53,080 nt of DNA, from NCBI GenBank assembly GCA_021158005.1, contig JAGGVN010000096.1, positions 1 through 53,080 on the forward strand. Reading direction: 5' to 3'. Every line of letters begins with the position of its first letter. Position 1 is the first letter of the stretch. Made by a program: the position numbers and the translations under genes. The notes beneath the pieces were generated by a model, which worked only from the letters and a program-made list of their open reading frames with translations, was not told the DNA's origin and ran no database searches. The DNA comes from Candidatus Aerophobota bacterium (lineage in GTDB: Bacteria > Aerophobota > Aerophobia > Aerophobales > JAGGVN01). This document shows positions 710 to 33,551 of the stretch, in pieces.

Positions 710-1993
710 TTATTTCTTTAAATTTATAAATTTATTTTTATAGCGAAAATCCATATTTATATCTACATCTGCTAAACCATTTTTTATTAAATGGGCATTA
801 ATGAAGGTTTTATTTCTTAAATAAAGATATGCTAATAAGTCCCCATTTTTATTATGTTTAATTGTATCAAATTTCAGAAACACTTTCTGTCCCTTCAGCT
901 TCGAAATTAGAAAATTTATGGCTTCTTCTGCTTTTTCCTTTTTAGCTTTTATTCCAATTAGTTTAACCTTTATCCCTGTATTTAATACTATAACTTCTGG
1001 AGAAATAATTTTTTTTACGGAATAATACTTCTCTTTTTTGGTCTGTGATAAATCTATTTTAGAACCAAATTGTAATTTTTTAGGATCAATTTTACGATCA
1101 AACTTTACCGGATCTTTAAAATAATAAGGTAATGCCTCTATCCGTGTTTTCCAATCTTTAGGAATGTTGTTTTGTGTAATAAATTCAAACTCTGCATCTT
1201 CTAAAAAATTTGGAGTTCTAGCCCCAATTTTATCTTTTATTATTGGTAAGAATTTTTTATTGATTTCATATCCAATTGAATTACGTCCTAAATTTTTAGC
1301 CGCCAGCGTTGTAGTTCCGCTACCAAGAAAAGGATCTAAGATTGTATCGCCAATAAAACTGAACATTTTTATTAACCTTCTTGGCAATTCTTCAGGAAAC
1401 ATTGCTAAATGTTTGGTTTGTCTTTCACCATTAAAATTCCAATGTCCCGAAAAATATTCACTCCATTCTTCTTTGCTTAACTTTGACTTTTCTTTAATGT
1501 CTCTCGATACTTTTGAAGGATTCCCTGGTTTCTTAAATATTAAAATAAATTCATAATCTATTTTTAAAATTCCATTGCGAGGATAGGGGAAACTACCCAT
1601 AACCGTAGCACCCCCTGTGGTATTCATCGTAGTCTGTTTTTGCCAAATAATCGCTCCCATATAGTCAAAGCCCATCGTTTCACAGAACTTTATTATTTCA
1701 GTACGAATAGGTATAATTTTATATCTTCCATAATAAACTGAGCGAGCAAATTGATCGCCTATATTTATACACAATCTACAACCATCTTGCAGAACTCTAA
1801 AACATTCATTCCAAACTAGATTTAAGTTGTTAATATAATCTTCATAACTATCATTAAAACCTATTTGTTGATCTGATCCATAATCTTTTAACTGCCAATA
1901 AGGAGGAGAAGTAATAATAAGATGAACTGATCCATCTTTAACTTCCCTCATATCTCTTGCATCACCAATTATAATTTTATGCCTAGTTTTCAT
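710..1993 (-). CDS. beta-class amino (probably N4-cytosine) DNA methyltransferase with C-terminal SNase/thermonuclease-like domain
   Basis: Motif IV TSPPY near the N-terminus, motif I LDPFLGSGTT later; the last ~105 aa follow the SNase pattern. Confidence 0.9.
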   Translation of the reverse strand: MKTRHKIIIGDARDMREVKDGSVHLIITSPPYWQLKDYGSDQQIGFNDSYEDYINNLNLVWNECFRVLQDGCRLCINIGDQFARSVYYGRYKIIPIRTEIIKFCETMGFDYMGAIIWQKQTTMNTTGGATVMGSFPYPRNGILKIDYEFILIFKKPGNPSKVSRDIKEKSKLSKEEWSEYFSGHWNFNGERQTKHLAMFPEELPRRLIKMFSFIGDTILDPFLGSGTTTLAAKNLGRNSIGYEINKKFLPIIKDKIGARTPNFLEDAEFEFITQNNIPKDWKTRIEALPYYFKDPVKFDRKIDPKKLQFGSKIDLSQTKKEKYYSVKKIISPEVIVLNTGIKVKLIGIKAKKEKAEEAINFLISKLKGQKVFLKFDTIKHNKNGDLLAYLYLRNKTFINAHLIKNGLADVDINMDFRYKNKFINLKK

Positions 1994-1996
1994 ATT

Positions 1997-2209
1997 TTAT
2001 TCAATTAAATTATCTAATGAAGTTTTTAACGCCTTCGCAATTTTCGCCACTACATACACAGAAGGCTTTTTGATAACGCCTGTTTCAATCTTGGTTAGAG
2101 TCGTATAAGGCACATCAGCTTTGCGGGCAAGTTCGTCTTGAGACAGGCCAAGACCCGTTCTTAACTTTTTGATTTTCTTCCCTAATTTATTGCCTTGATT
2201 ATTTTCCAT
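1997..2209 (-). CDS. XRE-family HTH regulator, likely RM controller (C) protein
   Basis: LGKKIKKLR..LGLSQDELA...LTKIETG...PS...VAKIAKAL; 3 nt upstream of the MTase. Confidence 0.85.
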   Translation of the reverse strand: MENNQGNKLGKKIKKLRTGLGLSQDELARKADVPYTTLTKIETGVIKKPSVYVVAKIAKALKTSLDNLIE

Positions 2210-2275
2210 ATTATACTATCATAAAATTGTTGATATCTTCTTCTTTCATTATTATACTAACAAATATAATGAAAG
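2209..2275 (-). promoter_or_regulatory. putative promoter/operator of the C-M-R operon
   Basis: Perfect inverted repeat CTTTCATTAT-N13-ATAATGAAAG (2243-2275); direct repeat TATTATACTA at 2209-2218 and 2250-2259, each containing TATAAT on the minus strand. Confidence 0.5.
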
Positions 2276-2411
2276 CAAGCAAATTTTTACAAGTCAAAGG
2301 TGAGAAAAAGCCTGCTTTTGGCCTGCATGCTTCGCACGCAAAGGTAAAAAATACTTGAAGGGAAAATTGGCTGGCGTGTCCTTTTAAATCCCCTCCCAGA
2401 ATACCAATTAG

Positions 2412-2502
2412 CGGAGAGGGTGGGATTCGAACCCACGGGACACCTTCAAAGGTGTTCAGTTGATTTCGAATCAACCGCTTTAAACCACTCAGCCACCTCT
2501 CC
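2412..2502 (-). tRNA. tRNA-Ser (anticodon CGA)
   Basis: GGAGAGG acceptor stem, GTTGA-TTCGAAA-TCAAC anticodon arm, long variable arm, GTTCGAATC T-loop, G discriminator; followed by CTA, so CCA is not encoded. Confidence 0.97.
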
Positions 2503-2619
2503 ACTTTACCGATTATTATTTTAGTAATAGATTAGTTTCTCTAAAATTTTTCTCCTTTTTCTGCATTGAGATTACTCTGGATTCGTCTCACAACGATAAA
2601 TACATTATTTCTTTGTTGA

Positions 2620-2651
2620 AGATAAACCGCAAGCGCTACCCATCTCTTGCG
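2620..2651 (-). terminator. possible terminator downstream of rplU
   Basis: CGCAAG/CTTGCG stem followed by GTTTATCT on the minus strand. Confidence 0.3.
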
Positions 2652-2749
2652 CATTCTTGGGAATACTTACCTCTGATTACTGCTTATATTAGCTTCTCTA
2701 ATTCTTCTCACAAAAGAAATTTCCTTAGGAGCAATAGACTTCCATTTAC

Positions 2750-3082
2750 CTAAGTTTTTTCTGGTTTCTTCGAATATTGAATTTCTTTTATGAGTAATTC
2801 GCTGAAGCGCTGACGATGTCCATATTTACGTTTATAACCTTTCCGTCTTTTAAACTTATAAACTATAATTTTTCTATCCTTTCCTTCCCTTAATACTTCG
2901 GCTATTACTTTAGCCTTACTTATTAAAGGATTTCCCCAAAAAGATTTATCTTCTTCCTTAATCATTAATACTTTATCCAGAATTACCTCCTTTCCTTCCG
3001 GTATATTTAATTTCTCTACTCTTATGACTGATCCCGGTTCAACTTTATATTGTTTTCCACCAGTCTCTATTATAGCCATCAT
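2750..3082 (-). CDS. rplU: 50S ribosomal protein L21
   Basis: AIIETGGKQYKV...KFKRRKGYKRKYGHRQ. Confidence 0.98.
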   Translation of the reverse strand: MMAIIETGGKQYKVEPGSVIRVEKLNIPEGKEVILDKVLMIKEEDKSFWGNPLISKAKVIAEVLREGKDRKIIVYKFKRRKGYKRKYGHRQRFSELLIKEIQYSKKPEKT

Positions 3083-3099
3083 TTTTTTTCTCCTTTAAG

Positions 3100-4350
3100 T
3101 TAAGTTCCTATTTTCCAGGAAGATAAATATATCTTTTGCTCTTCTGTTAATTCGTCTATTTCAATTCCCATACTCTCTAATTTCAATTTAGCCACCTTTT
3201 TATCAATTTCTGAGGGAACAGAATAAACTCTTCTCTCTAAATTTCCTCCTTTTTTAATTAAATACTCACAAGAGAGAGCTTGATTTGCAAAACTCATATC
3301 CATTACTAAAGAAGGATGTCCTTCAGCAGAAGATAAATTAACTAATCTTCCTTCAGAGATTAAATTTATTTTTCTTCCATCCTTTAAAGTGAACTCTTCC
3401 ACACTTTCTCTTATTTTCCTCTTTCTGATAGATAGCCTTTCCAGACCATCTAAATCTATCTCTACATTGAAATGACCTGCATTAGCTACTATTGCTCCGT
3501 TCCTCATTTCTTTAAAATGTTCCTCCCGAATAACACCTTTATCTCCTGTACTGGTTATAAAGATATTTCCCAGAGAAGAGGCTTCTTTTAGAGGCATCAC
3601 TAAATATCCATCCATTACCGCTTCTAAAGCTTTTAAAGGATCTACTTCGCAAATTATTACCCGCGCTCCCATTCCTCTTGCTCGCATCGCTATCCCTTTC
3701 CCGCACCATCCGTATCCACATACTACAAAGGTAGAGCCGGCCAAGAGCATATTAGTAGCCCGCAGGATACCATCAATAGTCGATTGACCGGTCCCATAAC
3801 GATTATCAAATAGATGTTTAGTATTAGCGTCGTTTACAGCAATTATCGGATACCTTAAAACTCCTTCATTAGCCATACTTCTTAAACGAATTACTCCCGT
3901 AGTTGTTTCCTCTGTTCCCCCTATAATAGGAAAATCTCTTTTCTCAGAATGAATAGTAGAAACTAAATCAGCTCCATCATCCATAGTAATCTGAGGTTCT
4001 ATCTTCAAAACACTGTGAATATGCTCATAATAAGTTTTTTTGTCTTCGCCTCTAATAGCAAAAACACTAATTCCATAGTCTTTTACCAAAGAGGCAGCCA
4101 CTTCATCTTGAGTAGAAAGAGGATTAGAAGCACATAAAAAAACATTTGCTCCTCCTTCTTTTAAAGCTTTGACGAGATTAGCAGTCTCCGAAGTGATATG
4201 CAAACAAGCAGCAATTCTTATCTCTCTTAAAGGTTTTTCCTTGTGAAACCTCTCTTCTATTAATCGCAGAACAGGCATCATCGATCTTGCCCATTCAATC
4301 CGCATCTTTCCTCTGTCCGCGAGACTTATATCCTTAATTTCATAATTCAT
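3100..4350 (-). CDS. ahcY: adenosylhomocysteinase
   Basis: [52 protein letters not shown]. Confidence 0.98.
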
Positions 4351-4377
4351 TCATCCCTCTCCTGTATAATTTCCTCT

Positions 4378-4405
4378 ATAGTAGCAAAGAGTGAAGAAAA
4401 GTCAA
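4378..4405 (-). promoter_or_regulatory. sigma70-type promoter for ahcY-rplU
   Basis: TTGACT-16 nt-TACTAT with TG extended -10. Confidence 0.55.
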
Positions 4406-4457
4406 TTTTCCAAGGATAATTAGCTCAGTAAAATGAAGGAAGTAAGCAAAAATAAAT

Positions 4458-4486
4458 TTGACATTTTTTTTCAATTATGATAAACT
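4458..4486 (+). promoter_or_regulatory. sigma70-type promoter for the secD operon
   Basis: TTGACA-17 nt-TAAACT with TG extended -10 and an AT-rich upstream element. Confidence 0.75.
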
Positions 4487-4490
4487 TCAA

Positions 4491-4619
4491 CCTATCTATA
4501 AAGCTTCTTATAAGCAATTATTAAGACTCTCCGAAGTATTTAATAGAGAATCCGGGCAAGAAAATTATTCCCGTAGATTCTTAATTTCTGAATGTTGGCT
4601 TGTAGATTTTATAGATAGG
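4491..4619 (+). ncRNA. structured leader / candidate ncRNA upstream of secD
   Basis: 12-bp perfect closing stem (4491-4502/4608-4619) plus nested inner helices; begins at the predicted transcription start. Confidence 0.5.
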
Positions 4620-4629
4620 GAGTAAAAGA

Positions 4630-6360
4630 ATGATAAAGTATAGCAAATGGATAATGCTCTTCATTATAGGACTGATAGTTTTATCTATCTGGACTGTCTA
4701 TCCTCCTCAAGAGAAGATAAAATTGGGTTTAGATTTAAAAGGAGGAACCCACCTTGTATTGGAAGCAGATCTTACTAAGCTTCCCCCGGGAGAAAGTCTT
4801 GAAGAAGTAGTCACTACTGCCATAGAAACTATCCGTAATCGCGTCGATGCGCTGGGCCTGAAAGAGCCTACCATTACCCGTCAAGGAAAAAAGAGAATAA
4901 TTGTAGATATTGCTGCTCATTCTTTAGATTTTAAGCTGCTGAGTGAAGAGCAAAATAATATAGAGGAAATCTTGAAAACAGGGAAAATTCCTCCGGATAC
5001 CGAACTCCTTTATGATGAAAAAGGAAATCCTTATCTGGTGGAGAAAGAAATTCTCCTATCAGGAAGCAGGGTAAAAGATGCTCGAGTAGAGATAGGAAGT
5101 AATAATAAACCTTATCTTCTTTTATTTCTCGATTCGGAAGGAGCCGATATTTTTGCTCGTTTAGCCAGTAAATATGGAGGGAGAAAATTAGCTATAATTT
5201 TTGATAATGTTGTAAAATGCACTCCCATAATAAAAAATCGGAGAGAGGAGAGAGAATCACCCGAAGATATCTTTATAAAAGTCTCTTCCCCCAAAGAGAA
5301 TCTAATTATGGAAGGAGATTTTACTTCTCAAGAAGCTTCGAACCTGCAGAGCGTTCTTAAGAGTGGAACAAGCCCGGTGGATATAATTAAACAAATGGCT
5401 CTATTGGAATTCAAATTAGTAGATGAGAAAGGAGATATAAGTAAAGCTCTTAAAGGGGAAATTCCTCCTCAAGACCAGGTACTCTACGATTTGGAGGGAA
5501 GGGCTTATTTACTTAAAAAAGAGACTCTTCTTACCGGTAAGAGTATTACTGATGTTCGTGTTCAGATAAATCAATGGGGACAGCCTTATATAGCTTTAAC
5601 TCTGGATAAAGAAGGAGCTAAAAAATTTGCGGAAATTACGGGAACACATGTAGGAGAAAGATTGGCTATAATTTTAGATAATGTAGTTAAATCTGCTCCG
5701 GTGATAAAAACCCGTATCCCTGATGGAAAAGCTGTTATTGAGGGAAACTTTGACATAGAAAGTGCAAATAAATTGAGAATTGTCTTAAAGAGCGGCGCTT
5801 TACCTGTTCCTTTTGAGATTATTCAAAATACGACTGTAGGCCCTTCTTTAGGACGAGACTCTATCCAGAAGGGATTTTTTGCAGGTATTATTGGTTTAAT
5901 AGTGGTAATTATCTTTATGGGGATTTACTATAAGAAAGCGGGGATTATTGCTGATATCGCCCTTATTCTAAACCTACTCTTCTTGATGGCAATCTTGGTG
6001 GCACTCAAAGCTACCCTTACTCTGCCAGGAATTGCCGGAATTATTCTCACTATCGGGATGAGTATCGATGCTAATGTTATTATCTTTGAAAGAATAAGAG
6101 AAGAAATAAAGGCAGAGAGGGCTCCTCGTCCGGCAGTCGATGCCGGATATAATAGAGCTCTAACTACTATTCTGGATGCAAACATTACTACCTTAATTGT
6201 TGCTTTGGTTCTCTTTCAATTTGGGACCGGTCCTATAAAAGGATTTGCCACTACTCTTTCCATAGGGATTTTAGCCAGTATGTTTACGGCTATTATAGTT
6301 ACCCGAGTTATCTTTAACCTTCTCTTAGAAAAAAGACCACTAAAGAAATTGAGTATTTAA
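4630..6360 (+). CDS. secD: protein translocase subunit SecD with duplicated P1 head domain
   Basis: LGLDLKGG, IRNRVDALG, LKSGALP, VGPSLG, TLTLPGIAGIILTIGMSIDANVIIFERIREE. Confidence 0.97.
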   Translation: MIKYSKWIMLFIIGLIVLSIWTVYPPQEKIKLGLDLKGGTHLVLEADLTKLPPGESLEEVVTTAIETIRNRVDALGLKEPTITRQGKKRIIVDIAAHSLDFKLLSEEQNNIEEILKTGKIPPDTELLYDEKGNPYLVEKEILLSGSRVKDARVEIGSNNKPYLLLFLDSEGADIFARLASKYGGRKLAIIFDNVVKCTPIIKNRREERESPEDIFIKVSSPKENLIMEGDFTSQEASNLQSVLKSGTSPVDIIKQMALLEFKLVDEKGDISKALKGEIPPQDQVLYDLEGRAYLLKKETLLTGKSITDVRVQINQWGQPYIALTLDKEGAKKFAEITGTHVGERLAIILDNVVKSAPVIKTRIPDGKAVIEGNFDIESANKLRIVLKSGALPVPFEIIQNTTVGPSLGRDSIQKGFFAGIIGLIVVIIFMGIYYKKAGIIADIALILNLLFLMAILVALKATLTLPGIAGIILTIGMSIDANVIIFERIREEIKAERAPRPAVDAGYNRALTTILDANITTLIVALVLFQFGTGPIKGFATTLSIGILASMFTAIIVTRVIFNLLLEKRPLKKLSI

Positions 6361-6371
6361 GGGAGAGATAA

Positions 6372-7418
6372 ATGCGCTTATTCAAAGAAACACATATAGA
6401 TTTCATTAAATTAAGGAAGATTGCTTTTGTTGTCTCGGGAGTATTAGTAACTTTAAGTATTGTTTCTCTTTTTATAAAAGGAGGACCAAAACTTGGACTG
6501 GACTTCACCGGGGGGGTAGAAATTCATCTTAAGTTTACCAGACCCCCTTCTATAAGTCGAATAAGAACTGCTCTATCTAAAATAGGCTTAGGGGAAGCAG
6601 TAATTCAGCAATATGGACAAAAGAAAGATAACCTCATTCTTGTGAGGTTGGGAGTAGAAAAAACTTCTTCAGAATTTGCTTCAGAAATATCCCCTAAAGT
6701 TGAACAAGCTATAAGAGGAGAATTTAAAGATGAAGAGAATGAATTTGTTATTCTTAGCTCAGAGTTAATTGGACCTAAGGTTGGTAAAGAGATCCAACAA
6801 AAAGCTATAATAGCTCTCAGTATTAGCTTTATAGGAATGCTCATTTATATTGCTCTGCGTTTTGAGCTAAGATTTGCTGTAGGAGCCATAGTTGCCTTAT
6901 GCCATGATGTCTTCATCGCTGTTGGAGCTTTATCCATAGGTAACTTTGAATTTAATTTACCAATAGTGGCTGCTTTACTCACCATAATAGGATACTCTTT
7001 AAACGACACTATTGTTATTTATGACCGAATAAGAGAAAATCTTAAAATCTACCGAAAAAAAGCAGGTTCACTCAAAGATATACTTAATTCGAGCATTAAC
7101 CAATCACTTTCAAGGACTATTATTACTTCTTTAACCACTTTTGTGGTGGTTCTGGCTTTATTTTTATGGGGAGGAGAAGTCCTTCATGGATTTGCTTTTG
7201 CTCTCCTTATAGGAGTAATAGTAGGCACATATTCATCATCCTTTGTAGCTACTCCTGTAGTCTATGGATGGGAAAGAAAGACTGAAGTGGAAAAGATTCA
7301 AGTGATGAGGAAAAGAACTAAGATAATTAAAAAACCCGTTGTTTCTGCCGCAAAAAAAGATAAACCAAAGAGTAAAGTCTCCAGAAAGAGAAAGAGTAGA
7401 AAAAAGAAAAAAAGATGA
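6372..7418 (+). CDS. secF: protein translocase subunit SecF
   Basis: GLDFTGG, IGPKVG, GYSLNDTIVIYDRIRE, SRTIITS. Confidence 0.97.
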   Translation: MRLFKETHIDFIKLRKIAFVVSGVLVTLSIVSLFIKGGPKLGLDFTGGVEIHLKFTRPPSISRIRTALSKIGLGEAVIQQYGQKKDNLILVRLGVEKTSSEFASEISPKVEQAIRGEFKDEENEFVILSSELIGPKVGKEIQQKAIIALSISFIGMLIYIALRFELRFAVGAIVALCHDVFIAVGALSIGNFEFNLPIVAALLTIIGYSLNDTIVIYDRIRENLKIYRKKAGSLKDILNSSINQSLSRTIITSLTTFVVVLALFLWGGEVLHGFAFALLIGVIVGTYSSSFVATPVVYGWERKTEVEKIQVMRKRTKIIKKPVVSAAKKDKPKSKVSRKRKSRKKKKR

Positions 7419-9998: not shown

Positions 9999-10979
9999 AT
10001 GGTGTATAAAAAAGCTAATGAAGGTGATGCCGATTTTTCGGGTTACCCTTCTAAAAGATGGATTGGATTTGGTATTGTGGGGATTATTATCGTAATTGTT
10101 CTCTTAAGTACTTTTTACTCTGTGGGACCTGATGAGGAAGGAGTAATTAAAAGATTTGGACGATACACAAGAACAGTTGGACCGGGACTACATTTTAAGA
10201 TTCCTTTTGTAGAAACAGTAATGAAGGTTAAAGTTAAATACATCTTTAAAGAGGAATTTGGATTTCGTACCTTAAAAGCAGGAGTAAAGACTATTTATGC
10301 TCCCGGAGATTATAGCGAAGAATCCTTAATGCTCACCGGTGATTTAAATGTGGGGGTAGTAGAATGGGTGGTTCAATATAAGGTGAAAGATCCCTTAGCT
10401 TTCCTCTTTAATGTCCGAGACCAAGAGGAGACAATTAGGGCTATTTCTGAGGCTTCTATGCGGCAAATAGTGGGAGATAGAAGTATTGATGAAATACTCA
10501 CTATAGGGCGAATAGAAGCGGGACAGAAAGCCCAGGAAAAATTACAAAGTATCCTCGACTCTTACAGAATGGGTATTCAGATAGTAACGGTCAAACTAAA
10601 AGATGTTAATCCTCCAGATCCGGTAAAACCTTCTTTTAATGAGGTTAATGAAGCCCGACAGGAGAGAGAAAGAACTATAAATGAGGCCTGGCAGGCCTAC
10701 AATAAAATTATCCCCAAAGCTAAGGGAGAAGCAGAAAAGATGATTAGTACTGCCGAAGGATATGCAATAAATAGAATAAACAGAGCTCTGGGAGAAGCTA
10801 ACAAATTCTTAGCTATCTGGGAAGAGTATAGAAAATCTCCGGAAGTTACCAAAAAAAGATTTTACCTGGAAACTTTAAATGAAGTTCTCCCCAAAATAGG
10901 CAAAAAATATATCCTGGACACAGAGGAAAAAGAAATTTTACCTCTTTTGCCTCTCGGGGAAATAGGAGGTAAAAAATGA
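9999..10979 (+). CDS. hflK: FtsH protease modulator HflK
   Basis: N-terminal TM plus SPFH domain, MLTGDLN, VNPPDPVKPSFNEV, paired with hflC. Confidence 0.93.
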   Translation: MVYKKANEGDADFSGYPSKRWIGFGIVGIIIVIVLLSTFYSVGPDEEGVIKRFGRYTRTVGPGLHFKIPFVETVMKVKVKYIFKEEFGFRTLKAGVKTIYAPGDYSEESLMLTGDLNVGVVEWVVQYKVKDPLAFLFNVRDQEETIRAISEASMRQIVGDRSIDEILTIGRIEAGQKAQEKLQSILDSYRMGIQIVTVKLKDVNPPDPVKPSFNEVNEARQERERTINEAWQAYNKIIPKAKGEAEKMISTAEGYAINRINRALGEANKFLAIWEEYRKSPEVTKKRFYLETLNEVLPKIGKKYILDTEEKEILPLLPLGEIGGKK

Positions 10980-11935
10980 AATGGGGAAAATGGATTTCTA
11001 TAATAATAGTAATTATTATAGCTCTCGTTGTTTTGAACGGAACGCTCTACACCGTGGATCAGGTAGAACAGGTAGTGATTACTCAATTTGGTAAACCCGT
11101 TGGAGGACCCATAATTGAGCCTGGACTCCATATAAAGATACCTTTTATTCAAAAAGTAAATCGTTTTGATAAAAGGCTTTTAAGCTGGGACGGAAGCCCT
11201 ACGCAAATCCCTACTAAAGATAAAAAATATATCTGGGTTGATACTACGGCGCGTTGGAAAATTGTTGACCCTTTAAAATTTTTGCAAGCAACAAGAAATG
11301 AGAGAATAGCTTTAGCCCGTCTTGACGATATTGTAGATTCAGCTACCCGAAACCAGATTACTAAATATATACTCTACGAAGTGGTGAGAAATACCGGGAG
11401 AGAATTTGCTATAGAAGCCGAAATGGGGGTAGAGCTTCCCGAAGAGATGGGAGGAGAAGTTAAGTATGGACGAGAAAAAATATCCCGGGAGATATTGAAA
11501 GAAGCTTCTTCCTCATTTCCTCAATATGGGATGGAGTTAGTAGATGTAAGAATAAAAAGAATTAATTATGTAGAAGATGTGAGACAAAAAGTTTATTCAC
11601 GAATGATTTCTGAGCGAAAAAGAGTAGCTGAACAGTATCGCTCTGAGGGTATGGGAGAAAAGGAAAGAATTGAAGGGTTAAAAGAAAAAGAGCTAAAGAG
11701 AATTATCTCTGAAGCTTACAAAAAGGCTCAAGAAATTGAAGGAAGTGCGGATGCAAAAGCTACCAAAATATATGCTGAGGCTTATAATAAAGACCCTGAG
11801 TTTTATTCTTTTTTGAAGACTCTGGAAACTTACAAAAACACTCTTGATGAAAATACCTGGTTAATTCTTTCTTCCGATAGTGAATTTTACAAATACCTAA
11901 AGAGTATTCCCCTGGAAAAAACTTCTCAAAAGTGA
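10976..11935 (+). CDS. hflC: FtsH protease modulator HflC
   Basis: TQFGKP, PGLHIKIPFIQ, DVRIKR, RMISER, DPEFYSF. Confidence 0.94.
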   Translation: MKWGKWISIIIVIIIALVVLNGTLYTVDQVEQVVITQFGKPVGGPIIEPGLHIKIPFIQKVNRFDKRLLSWDGSPTQIPTKDKKYIWVDTTARWKIVDPLKFLQATRNERIALARLDDIVDSATRNQITKYILYEVVRNTGREFAIEAEMGVELPEEMGGEVKYGREKISREILKEASSSFPQYGMELVDVRIKRINYVEDVRQKVYSRMISERKRVAEQYRSEGMGEKERIEGLKEKELKRIISEAYKKAQEIEGSADAKATKIYAEAYNKDPEFYSFLKTLETYKNTLDENTWLILSSDSEFYKYLKSIPLEKTSQK

Positions 11936-31460: not shown

Positions 31461-32252
31461 TCAGGGGTTATCCGATGGGGAATCTTTCTTGGTATCTTCT
31501 TTATGAGCCGAAGATACTCTCTGGGTAAAGGTATTCAAGAAGTCAATAGGAACAGGGAAAACAATAGTAGAACTGTGCTCAGTAGATATCTCGGAGAGAG
31601 TCTGAAGATATCTTAATTGAATAGCCTGAGGATATTTACTGAGAATTTCTGCGGCTTGAGACAACTTCTCAGATGCCTGATATTCTCCTGTTGCATTAAT
31701 GACCTTAGCTCTTCTTTCTCTTTCCACTTCAGCTTGCCTGGCCATAGCCCGTTTCATAGTGTCGGGAATTTCAATCTCTTTTATCTCCACCACGCTCACC
31801 TTAATTCCCCAGGGGTCAGTCTGCTCGTCTATTATTGCCTGGAGTCTATCGTTTATTTTTTCTCTTTGTGAAAGAAGCTCATCTAATTCTATTTCTCCAA
31901 CTACTCCCCTTAGAGTAGTTTGAGCTATCTGGAGAGTAGCGAAACGGAAGTTCTCAACTGCTACCACCGCTTTACAGGGATCTATAATTCTAAAATAGAT
32001 TACCGCGTTTACTTTGACGGGAACATTATCCTTAGTCATTACCTCCTGAGGCTGAACATCAAAGTTTATGGTTCTTAAGCTCATTTTTATCATTTTATCC
32101 ACAATAGGAATAATTAAGAAAATCCCGGGACCCTTTGCTCCTACCAATCTTCCTAATCTAAAGATTACTCCCCTCTCATACTCATTGACTATTCTAATAG
32201 AAGCCATTAAAATAATGAGCAATACTATTATTAGAAATATTATTAACCCCAT
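31461..32252 (-). CDS. slipin / stomatin-like SPFH protein
   Basis: [34 protein letters not shown]. Confidence 0.94.
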
Positions 32253-32255
32253 CTT

Positions 32256-33551
32256 TTACACCTCCTTTTTCTTTACTATCAATCTCATTCCTTCTAATCC
32301 TCTTACCTCTACTTTCTCTCCTTTTTTAATTATCTCTTCAGGAAATTCAGCCCTTGCATTCCACATCTCTCCCCATATCCAGATTTTTCCATAAGGATTA
32401 AGATTAGTCTTAGCTACTCCTTCTCTTCCTATCATTCCCTCTGGCCCTGTAACCGGTCTTTTTACACGTGCTTTGACTACATAGGTAATAACAAATACAA
32501 AAAAACCGGAAATAAGAGCAGCAGCAAGAATAATATATTTTAAAGATATAGAGATATAAAGGGCAGAGGGATCAATCAGCATAAGAGAACCTAAGATTAG
32601 AGCAATTACCCCTCCAATAGTTAAAGCTCCATAAGAGGTAACTTTAATCTCTAAAAGAAATAAAATAACAGCTAAGATGATGAGAAATATCCCTGCTAAG
32701 GTAAAAGGAACAACCTGGAGGGAAAAGAGAGAGAGAATTAAGCAGGTTGTTCCGACAACTCCAGGAAGTATTGCTCCCGGATGAAGAAACTCCATAATAA
32801 TCCCGAGTATTCCTATCATCATCAGAATATATGCTATATTGGGGTCGGCTAAGGTTTGAAGAAACTTTTCCTGAAAGGAGGAAGGAATAAAACAAATTTC
32901 TGCTTTCTTTGTCTTAAGCACAACTATTCTTTTAGGAAATTCTATCTTCTTCCCGTCTATTTTCTGGAGAAGTTCGGACAAATCCTCAGCAATAAGGTCT
33001 ATTACTCCCAATTTTAAAGCTTCTGTTTCTGTTATAGAAACACTCTTTCTAACAGCTTCTTCTGCCCACTGAGCATTCTTTCCTCGCTTCTGAGCGATAG
33101 ATTTAATATAAGCAGAAGCATCATTGAGAACCTTTTCTTTTGTTTCTTCATCCATTTGCATTCCCATAGCTACCGGATGAGCTGCCCCAATATTAGTCCC
33201 CGGAGCCATTGCCGCTATGTGAGCCGCTAAAGTAATAAAGACCCCGGCTGAGGCTGCCCTTGCCCCTTTAGGAGATACATAAACTACTACAGGAATTGTA
33301 CTATTAAGCATTGCTTTGGTCATCTGACGCATAGAAGTATCCAATCCTCCGGGAGTATCCAGTTCAATGACTAAACACTCACTCTTTTCCTTAATAGCAA
33401 TATTGAGTGCTTTTTCCAGACGATTAGCTGTAACCGGACTTATAGGCCCATTAATAGTTAAAACCTGCACATTCTCTGATTTAGCTGGTAAACAGAAGAT
33501 AAAAGAAACTAAAATAATTAGCAAAATTATAATTTCTATCTCTTTTTTCAT
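32256..33551 (-). CDS. nfeD: NfeD-family membrane-bound serine protease
   Basis: LDTPGG, ARAASAG, GTNIGAAHPV, TM bundle, C-terminal OB fold (GEMWNA); upstream of slipin. Confidence 0.93.
   Translation of the reverse strand: MKKEIEIIILLIILVSFIFCLPAKSENVQVLTINGPISPVTANRLEKALNIAIKEKSECLVIELDTPGGLDTSMRQMTKAMLNSTIPVVVYVSPKGARAASAGVFITLAAHIAAMAPGTNIGAAHPVAMGMQMDEETKEKVLNDASAYIKSIAQKRGKNAQWAEEAVRKSVSITETEALKLGVIDLIAEDLSELLQKIDGKKIEFPKRIVVLKTKKAEICFIPSSFQEKFLQTLADPNIAYILMMIGILGIIMEFLHPGAILPGVVGTTCLILSLFSLQVVPFTLAGIFLIILAVILFLLEIKVTSYGALTIGGVIALILGSLMLIDPSALYISISLKYIILAAALISGFFVFVITYVVKARVKRPVTGPEGMIGREGVAKTNLNPYGKIWIWGEMWNARAEFPEEIIKKGEKVEVRGLEGMRLIVKKKEV

Follow-up and report, generated by a model that had tools for sequence, protein, structure and literature searches.

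A SecD with two tandem P1 heads in an uncultivated Candidatus Aerophobota bacterium

SecDF is a proton-driven helper of bacterial protein export. Analysis of a 53,080-nucleotide stretch from a Candidatus Aerophobota bacterium (contig JAGGVN010000096.1, positions 1 to 53,080 of the forward strand, assembly GCA_021158005.1; hereafter the window) revealed a secD gene whose product carries two P1 heads in tandem, and the assembly of this uncultivated organism, a marine bacterium, yielded no SecD other than this two-head protein. The Pfam head profile SecDF_P1_head (PF22599) matched the protein twice (183.7 bits in all, E = 1.1e-54), giving the two head-domain hits that the first-pass annotation of this DNA had led us to expect: head 1 at 5002–5370 (70.1 bits, E = 1.9e-19, profile positions 2–111 of 114) and head 2 at 5479–5808 (120.4 bits), both in a single open reading frame (ORF). 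What is new here is a SecD with a duplicated P1 head; the SecDF machine itself is known. We regard the two-head architecture and its origin by a lineage-specific internal duplication as nearly certain. The features of secD and of its partner gene secF, with TM standing for transmembrane segment, are:

4630–6360, + strand: secD, encoding SecD of 576 amino acids (ORF list; NCBIfam TIGR01129)
4630–4914, + strand: TM1, GG motif and N-terminal half of the P1 base, residues 1–95 (Pfam; alignments of relatives)
4915–5379, + strand: head 1 module, residues 96–250, with an extra hinge strand, P1 head and closing helix (PF22599 at 5002–5370)
5260–5304, + strand: head-1-specific insert of 15 residues, 211–225 (alignment A3; hhalign)
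5380–5814, + strand: base helix, hinge strand and head 2, the canonical head, residues 251–395 (PF22599 at 5479–5808)
5815–6357, + strand: last P1-base strand and TM2–TM6, residues 396–576 (Pfam SecD_SecF_C)
6067–6069, + strand: codon of D480, the essential TM4 aspartate (aligns with position 340 of Thermus thermophilus SecDF)
6372–7418, + strand: secF, encoding the partner subunit SecF of 348 amino acids (NCBIfam TIGR00966)
7113–7115, + strand: codon of SecF R248, the conserved TM11 arginine in an LSRT motif (aligns with T. thermophilus position 671)

The product was recognised as SecD by TIGR01129 (493.8 bits against a cut-off of 244.4), with a match split into two stretches because head 1 interrupts it. 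Pfam placed Sec_GG at residues 30–47 (22.3 bits, cut-off 20.3), SecD_1st at residues 62–95 (53.8 bits) and SecD_SecF_C (PF02355) at residues 395–565 (83.5 bits), and AlphaFold2 predicted helices at residues 2–23 and 409–568. The rule of one head per P1 base does not hold here, with two PF22599 domains within one ORF; since the protein is a SecD by every other membership test, we filed it as a variant of SecD. No second SecD was found in the window's genome (G000; metagenome-assembled, 165 contigs, 92.5% complete), where the SecD query matched secD and, weakly, secF only. The secF gene starts 11 nt downstream of secD, and its product scored 317.9 bits with TIGR00966 (cut-off 160). D480 of SecD, invariant in alignment A2, and R248 of SecF were paired, by counting by hand on the alignment to T. 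thermophilus SecDF, with D340 (TM4) and R671 (TM11), which we take to be the numbers of its essential motor residues; the presence of D480 and R248 was checked separately. A passage of PMC5974789 describes proton flow in the SecDF motor via the SecD TM4 aspartate and the SecF TM11 arginine.

The two heads are paralogues, as the first-pass annotation had proposed. BLASTP of residues 96–255 against 256–400 gave 64 identities in 152 positions (42%, E = 2e-37), and profile–profile alignment by hhalign matched head 1 with the head 2 family at 99.95% probability over 135 columns. The residual likeness of the heads as DNA, which had also been noticed, was confirmed over a short stretch only (81% across 58 nt, E = 5e-11). 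The 30-mers at 5191–5220 and 5665–5694 share 25 of 30 bases by hand count, and since they encode the most conserved peptide they carry little information on the recency of the duplication. The insert in the first copy, put at about 14 residues, proved to have 15. The claim that head 1 interrupts the P1 base was likewise borne out: the SecD_1st match of the window protein covers only profile positions 2–35 of 60, compared with 1–59 in a single-head relative, and the base strand of the relatives runs directly into the base helix.

Comparison with relatives located the added segment precisely. The nearest proteins, named as SecD of 'Candidatus Aerophobetes bacterium', are about 430 amino acids long and 72–79% identical where they align, covering only 57–58% of the query. 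Among 30 other genomes of the phylum, all of the same order, 29 matched the SecD query; these matches lay within residues 1–95 and about 243–576, and none in the 29 genomes touched residues 97–242. Single-head Aerophobetes-like SecDs (for example P0008, P0026 and P0060, about 430 amino acids) have the same Pfam parts apart from the head count and are without residues 96–248, which the relatives skip in the alignment. Because the relatives are without the segment 96–250, it constitutes a lineage-specific internal duplication. In the alignment, the base strand of single-head relatives is followed by a short loop and helix and then by the hinge strand; in the window SecD the base strand ending at residue 95 is followed by a copy of the hinge strand, head 1 and a closing helix, after which the base helix leads through the hinge strand to head 2. 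Head 2, the copy further downstream, has stayed canonical; it is 70–75% identical to the heads of the relatives (tblastn) and is the orthologue of their single head. A family search (E ≤ 0.001) found two heads in one ORF in none of the 30 other Aerophobetes-like genomes, only in the window's own. Five of these genomes had two head matches each, never in one ORF: on separate contigs in G001 and G016, as fragments on two contigs in G022, and with the second match in separate ORFs of 281 and 276 amino acids in G005 and G010, respectively.

Phylogenetic analysis supported the same origin. In a 97-row tree of head domains, head 1 (three rows), head 2 (three rows) and 11 Aerophobetes single heads formed one clade (Shimodaira–Hasegawa-like approximate likelihood ratio test, SH-aLRT, 100), and the clade was recovered in a 54-row tree built after dropping seven rows with long branches and then alternate rows among the 73 diverse ones that remained (ultrafast bootstrap 100, SH-aLRT 99). 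A clade of head 1 and head 2 was not rejected (approximately unbiased test, p = 0.32). The stem branch leading to head 1 measured 1.25 changes per column and that leading to head 2 measured 0.21, a roughly sixfold difference. The free-standing head proteins of G005 and G010 were considered as donors of head 1 and rejected, being only 26% identical to it. These proteins of about 280 amino acids (L097, 683–1525, + strand, G005:C28; L098, 686–1513, + strand, G010:C121) belong to another Aerophobetes-like family, have a hydrophobic stretch resembling a signal at the N-terminus, contain a single P1-head-like domain (about 70 bits with PF22599) and are 26–29% identical to the SecD heads.

An assembly or gene-calling artefact, such as a chimeric contig or a collapsed repeat, might be suspected in a metagenome-assembled genome of 165 contigs; the evidence leaves it a negligible chance. 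With the heads 42% identical as protein and alike as DNA over only one 58-nt stretch at 81%, an assembler cannot collapse or mis-join the copies. Moreover, the same architecture was present in diverged contigs of other samples. Five distinct two-head sequences were recovered (the window, P0004, P0005, L015 and L016), mutually 86–96% identical, the four relatives standing at 86–89% to the window protein. Two heads occurred in three of the 120 best relatives, namely the window's own cluster, P0004 and P0005, the latter two being full-length (575 amino acids) with two Pfam heads each; L015 and L016 were found by a metagenome scan with head 1 alone as the query. At least half of the sampled words of the secD gene were present in each of eight public runs, two of which may be the source; the runs come from four studies and bear the labels hydrothermal vent, marine sediment, sediment and, in coded form, 'organism A'. 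Contigs of four of the eight runs were compared with the window's secD. In run X5, from another study, one contig covers 4630–5494 with four differences and bridges both junctions of head 1, and contigs of runs X6 and X8 bridge the first junction.

Head 1 is very probably functional and maintained. Rough pairwise ratios of nonsynonymous to synonymous substitution rates (dN/dS, Nei–Gojobori) were 0.068–0.159 for head 1, 0.057–0.137 for head 2 and 0.038–0.049 for the membrane part, with a dN of head 1 about 2.6 times that of head 2, and the three DNA copies (window, L015, L016) contained no frameshifts or stops. On these data head 1 went through one episode of rapid change, after the duplication, and has been under constraint from then on. 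They also bear on the idea that the duplication is simply tolerated and has no function, head 1 persisting because an inert but folded domain does less damage than a remnant that misfolds. In other lineages the P1 region tolerates numerous insertions, head 1 is missing almost half of the conserved head positions and the family is small, all of which would fit such a history. However, the dN/dS of head 1 (0.07–0.16) is as low as that of head 2 across lineages with dS of 0.2–1.7, the lineage-specific insert is itself conserved, the three DNA copies are intact, and P0004 and P0005 are full-length with two heads; we therefore consider a merely tolerated duplication improbable.

The surveys revealed that the two-head design is rare and conserved, and that no SecD surveyed outside this family has it, in keeping with the first-pass annotation, whose reader knew of no described example. 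The head profile was searched against 1.84 billion cluster representatives, a search in which multi-head proteins score about double. Of these, 15,293 reached E ≤ 0.001 and the best 150 (at least 106 bits) were examined; a two-head SecD with each head below about 53 bits would fall below this set. Seventeen of the 150 were flagged with at least two stretches and seven held at least two separate heads on re-scan, the other ten being rejected as single heads with the first strand split off. P0004, from the window's own family, was the only two-head SecD among the best 150 of the 15,293 representatives. The other six multi-head representatives (the ankyrin protein P0123, the kinase P0254, the five-head P0194, P0129, P0203 and P0206) are without the SecD membrane domain PF02355.

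Other samples gave the same result. None of 80 SecD loci from GTDB species, the top-scoring ones among at least 599 matches, encoded a two-head SecD, and 79 have one head; an apparent second head in L093, a Poribacteria record, was spurious (10.5 bits), with one head in Pfam and SecD_1st overlapping the match. Family searches of genomes (E ≤ 1e-5 for the Chitinophagaceae and alphaproteobacterial groups, both E ≤ 1e-5 and E ≤ 0.001 for the Desulfobacterales group, and E ≤ 0.001 for the two further genomes) found two heads in one ORF in none of 201 genomes from the phylum of a Desulfobacterales metagenome-assembled genome (MAG), none of 101 from the phylum of a Chitinophagaceae MAG, none of 101 from the phylum of an alphaproteobacterial MAG and neither of two further genomes, which with the 30 Aerophobetes-like genomes makes 0 of 435 outside G000. 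Second head matches in genomes other than G000 were always in other ORFs. Seven longer or fused relatives of 1010–1849 amino acids included none with two heads, each having a single one. In an Atlas search with the two-head part, no cluster (of at least 50 members) aligned both heads, and the longest alignment spanned 198 of 303 residues. Literature searches turned up no description of a SecD carrying a second P1 head and no paper that combines Aerophobetes with SecD. P0121 and P0122 (531 and 533 amino acids, 97% query coverage) were rejected as two-head candidates, Pfam showing one head and about 90 extra residues. Such an extension, between the GG motif and SecD_1st, occurs in SecDs of about 525–535 amino acids from Desulfobacterota-like genomes (P0115, P0121, P0122 and many diverse loci); it is common, has no Pfam match and is different from the head duplication.

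Analysis of head 1 showed that it retains the P1 head fold, with PF22599 matching over nearly the whole profile and a matching predicted secondary structure. In the AlphaFold2 model of SecD (72-row alignment; mean predicted local distance difference test score, pLDDT, 75), strands and helices follow the same order in both heads, with an extra short strand at residues 215–219 in the insert. Block pLDDT values for head 1 were 70–90 (residues 101–200), 60 (201–210) and 69–77 (211–250, with 75–77 for 211–230), followed by 56 for the linker (251–260) and 66–87 for head 2 (261–380). We defined conserved head positions as the 42 columns at least 70% conserved in 91 canonical heads; head 1 keeps 22 of them and head 2 keeps 34. 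The losses in head 1 cluster at the SAP motif, at the I..GG loop, which is the insert site, and at the C-terminal GALPxP hinge. In the hinge, the L of GALP (98% conserved) is replaced by S and a P (91%) by D, and the GG loop is gone. The first strand of head 1 begins only three residues after the base strand, whereas a canonical head is joined through a strand–helix–strand link.

The first-pass annotation had gone from this architecture to a double-headed SecDF motor or chaperone. Its account of the architecture and of its rarity stands: the protein has two true P1 heads in one SecD, together with a membrane domain of the RND (resistance–nodulation–division) type, an adjacent SecF and intact proton-relay residues. 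The loss of 20 of the 42 conserved positions in head 1, the hinge motif among them, makes an accessory role more plausible than a pair of equivalent motor heads. A true double-headed motor, in which both hinged heads capture preprotein hand over hand, one holding while the other resets, could draw on a duplicated unit that includes the hinge strand and the closing helix, so that each head has its own two-segment stalk, and on the purifying selection acting on both heads. Against this, head 1 has lost the nearly invariant hinge residues and the GG loop, its first strand lies three residues past the base strand without the canonical link, and on its stem branch it has accumulated roughly six times as much change as head 2. 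A motor of this kind thus appears unlikely.

The insert is charged, occupies the loop matching residues 359–372 of head 2, and has a core that is invariant in all three aligned head-1 sequences. According to a passage of PMC5974789, R407 of Escherichia coli SecD is the only residue cross-linked to the precursor. Positions 405–417 of the E. coli chain 5mg3_D align with SecD 359–372 and include arginines at chain positions 408 and 414; both fall in the loop that holds the insert in head 1, and by this alignment R407 does too. The same E. coli chain has about 20 residues more than head 2 between the LAI strand and the arginine loop (chain 375–405 vs query 98–109), and extra residues in that region of the head are thus not unique to head 1. 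An acidic charge was also considered as a mark of head 1 and rejected: the isoelectric points of 4.96 vs 8.09 are not distinctive, with a median of 5.10 in the 11 Aerophobetes single heads and a range of 5.07 to 7.88 in the three head 2 copies.

In the working model outlined in a passage of PMC5974789, an amphiphilic cavity of the SecDF head captures the precursor and the head swings between a membrane-facing and an upright position, coupled to proton flow. A tandem duplication within secD copied the whole 'lollipop' of hinge strand, P1 head and closing helix. As to mechanism, we propose that SecD and SecF still form a proton-driven SecDF motor, since the TM4 aspartate and the TM11 arginine are kept, and head 2 with its canonical hinge would perform the usual swing, capturing and pulling the emerging preprotein. 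Head 1 occupies the loop that joins the third base strand to the base helix, beside the hinge of head 2; it would hold substrate in an accessory capacity, like a holdase or 'second hand' built into SecD, and would not be another motor head of equal standing. Taken as a whole, mechanism included, we consider this explanation slightly favoured; the holding role of head 1, whose function we infer, is put forward tentatively, at somewhat less than an even chance. A further possibility is a two-clamp ratchet, in which the hinged canonical head pulls the chain out of SecY and the remodelled head stays fixed on the base and acts as a pawl, gripping the chain from one stroke to the next; we regard this as speculative and rather unlikely. 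If true, back-sliding would be blocked with no separate chaperone needed in the periplasm, and no SecDF is known to solve the problem mechanically in this way.

Several points weigh against the proposed explanation. Substrate binding by head 1 is assumed from its predicted fold, and head 1 has lost 20 of the 42 conserved head positions. The whole-chain predicted template modelling score of the AlphaFold2 model is only 0.49, so the model scores individual regions and not head placement. The mapping of R407 is approximate, the alignment having arginines at chain positions 408 and 414. Residues of the head cavity are described in a passage of PMC5974789 as poorly conserved, and sequence therefore cannot confirm a cavity in head 1. 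The dS between the window and L015 or L016 is 0.6–1.7 and partly saturated, which makes the dN/dS ratios rough. Finally, the family is small, comprising three 90% clusters and two further contigs.

Instead of binding preprotein, head 1 might be a docking platform for a partner, such as a periplasmic chaperone, YidC or an outer-membrane assembly factor. A new interface could arise from the conserved charged insert together with the changes at the surface, and a passage of PMC5141469 reports that the periplasmic domains of E. coli SecDF contact YidC and lie at the SecY exit; links to SurA and BAM are mentioned in further titles and abstracts. However, no candidate partner gene is linked to secDF, whose neighbours are housekeeping genes (AdoHcy hydrolase, murG, murC and SPFH genes), and we judge a docking function doubtful. 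The murG and murC genes lie downstream of secF in the window, and the metagenome contig L016 has the same order, secD–secF–murG–murC. Three SPFH/Band 7 genes are present in the window (9999–11935, + strand, and 31464–33551, − strand), two of them in tandem directly after murC and the third paired with a gene for an NfeD-type membrane protease. A restriction–modification pair at 70–1993 on the − strand, consisting of an MjaI-type endonuclease (70–705) and a DNA methylase (710–1993) with a staphylococcal-nuclease-like domain at its C-terminal end, sits in the most AT-rich part of the window (GC fraction 0.287 over 1–2000).

Among known systems, canonical SecDF of T. thermophilus (3AQP, 5YHF) and Deinococcus radiodurans (5XAN, 5XAP) gave the best sequence and fold matches, with solved SecDF chains aligning over 387–404 of the 576 residues. 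A phmmer search matched PDB entry 3aqp at E = 1e-98, with 3aqp aligning to query residues 10–96 and skipping 97–250, and 5yhf was matched by Foldseek (E = 2e-27) and by VIA-align (Z = 24.3, root-mean-square deviation 14.6, 387 residues aligned). The window SecD shares with canonical SecDF the TM1, the P1 base, the P1 head, the six-helix RND half with its TM4 aspartate, and a SecF with the TM11 arginine. Canonical SecDF has one P1 head, whereas the window SecD has a further head module of 155 residues inserted in the base.

SecDs with a built-in folding helper (parvulin in candidate-phyla-radiation bacteria; cyclophilin in P0332) likewise carry an added substrate-handling module, but theirs is a prolyl isomerase or chaperone of another fold, whereas that of the window SecD is a paralogue of its own head. 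The Pfam list of P0332 (671 amino acids) has a cyclophilin-type prolyl isomerase (PF00160) with SecD_1st, the head and the membrane domain, and parvulin domains appear in the SecD Pfam lists of P0363, P0380 and P0385.

Extra P1 heads as such are not unheard of, occurring as separate proteins and in non-SecD proteins. Separate extra P1 modules (P0129, P0279, and those of G431, G005 and G010) are additional head copies like head 1; unlike in the window SecD, the extra head there is a polypeptide of its own, without PF02355. P0129 and P0279 (484 and 485 amino acids) have a TM1 anchor and two complete tandem P1 modules (SecD_1st and head, twice), which gives them the look of anchored 'double P1' paralogues of SecD; because the contig of P0129 is 446 kb long, its gene is not a truncated one. 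In L099 (G431:C7:92000-97800, from the phylum sample centred on the alphaproteobacterial MAG), a 379-amino-acid P1-only ORF (3984–5120, − strand) lies between a yajC-like ORF and a secDF of 851 amino acids (1346–3898, − strand). It has TM1 and a full P1, stops directly after the head and is 52% identical to the SecDF N-terminus, and it amounts to a second head in trans beside the motor. Outside SecD, P0123 combines ankyrin repeats with two P1 modules, P0254 a protein kinase domain with two heads, P0194 (776 amino acids) has five heads, and P0272, a tetratricopeptide repeat protein of 1849 amino acids, has one Aerophobetes-like P1 (204 bits).

SecD has repeatedly gained parts that handle substrate, parvulin and cyclophilin in some lineages and a copy of its own head in this one. 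The extra modules and heads in other lineages fit a general benefit of more substrate handling at the translocon exit. Being confined to a small uncultivated family, the two-head SecD would have limited general importance unless its mechanism proves distinct. For the capture, pull and release of the chain by the single SecDF head there is as yet a working model, according to a passage of PMC5974789. Nature provides a comparison for it in this lineage, whose sole SecD has an additional, conserved head in which the substrate-contact loop is rebuilt and the hinge changed; the two-head SecD could show whether one module can capture and another pull.

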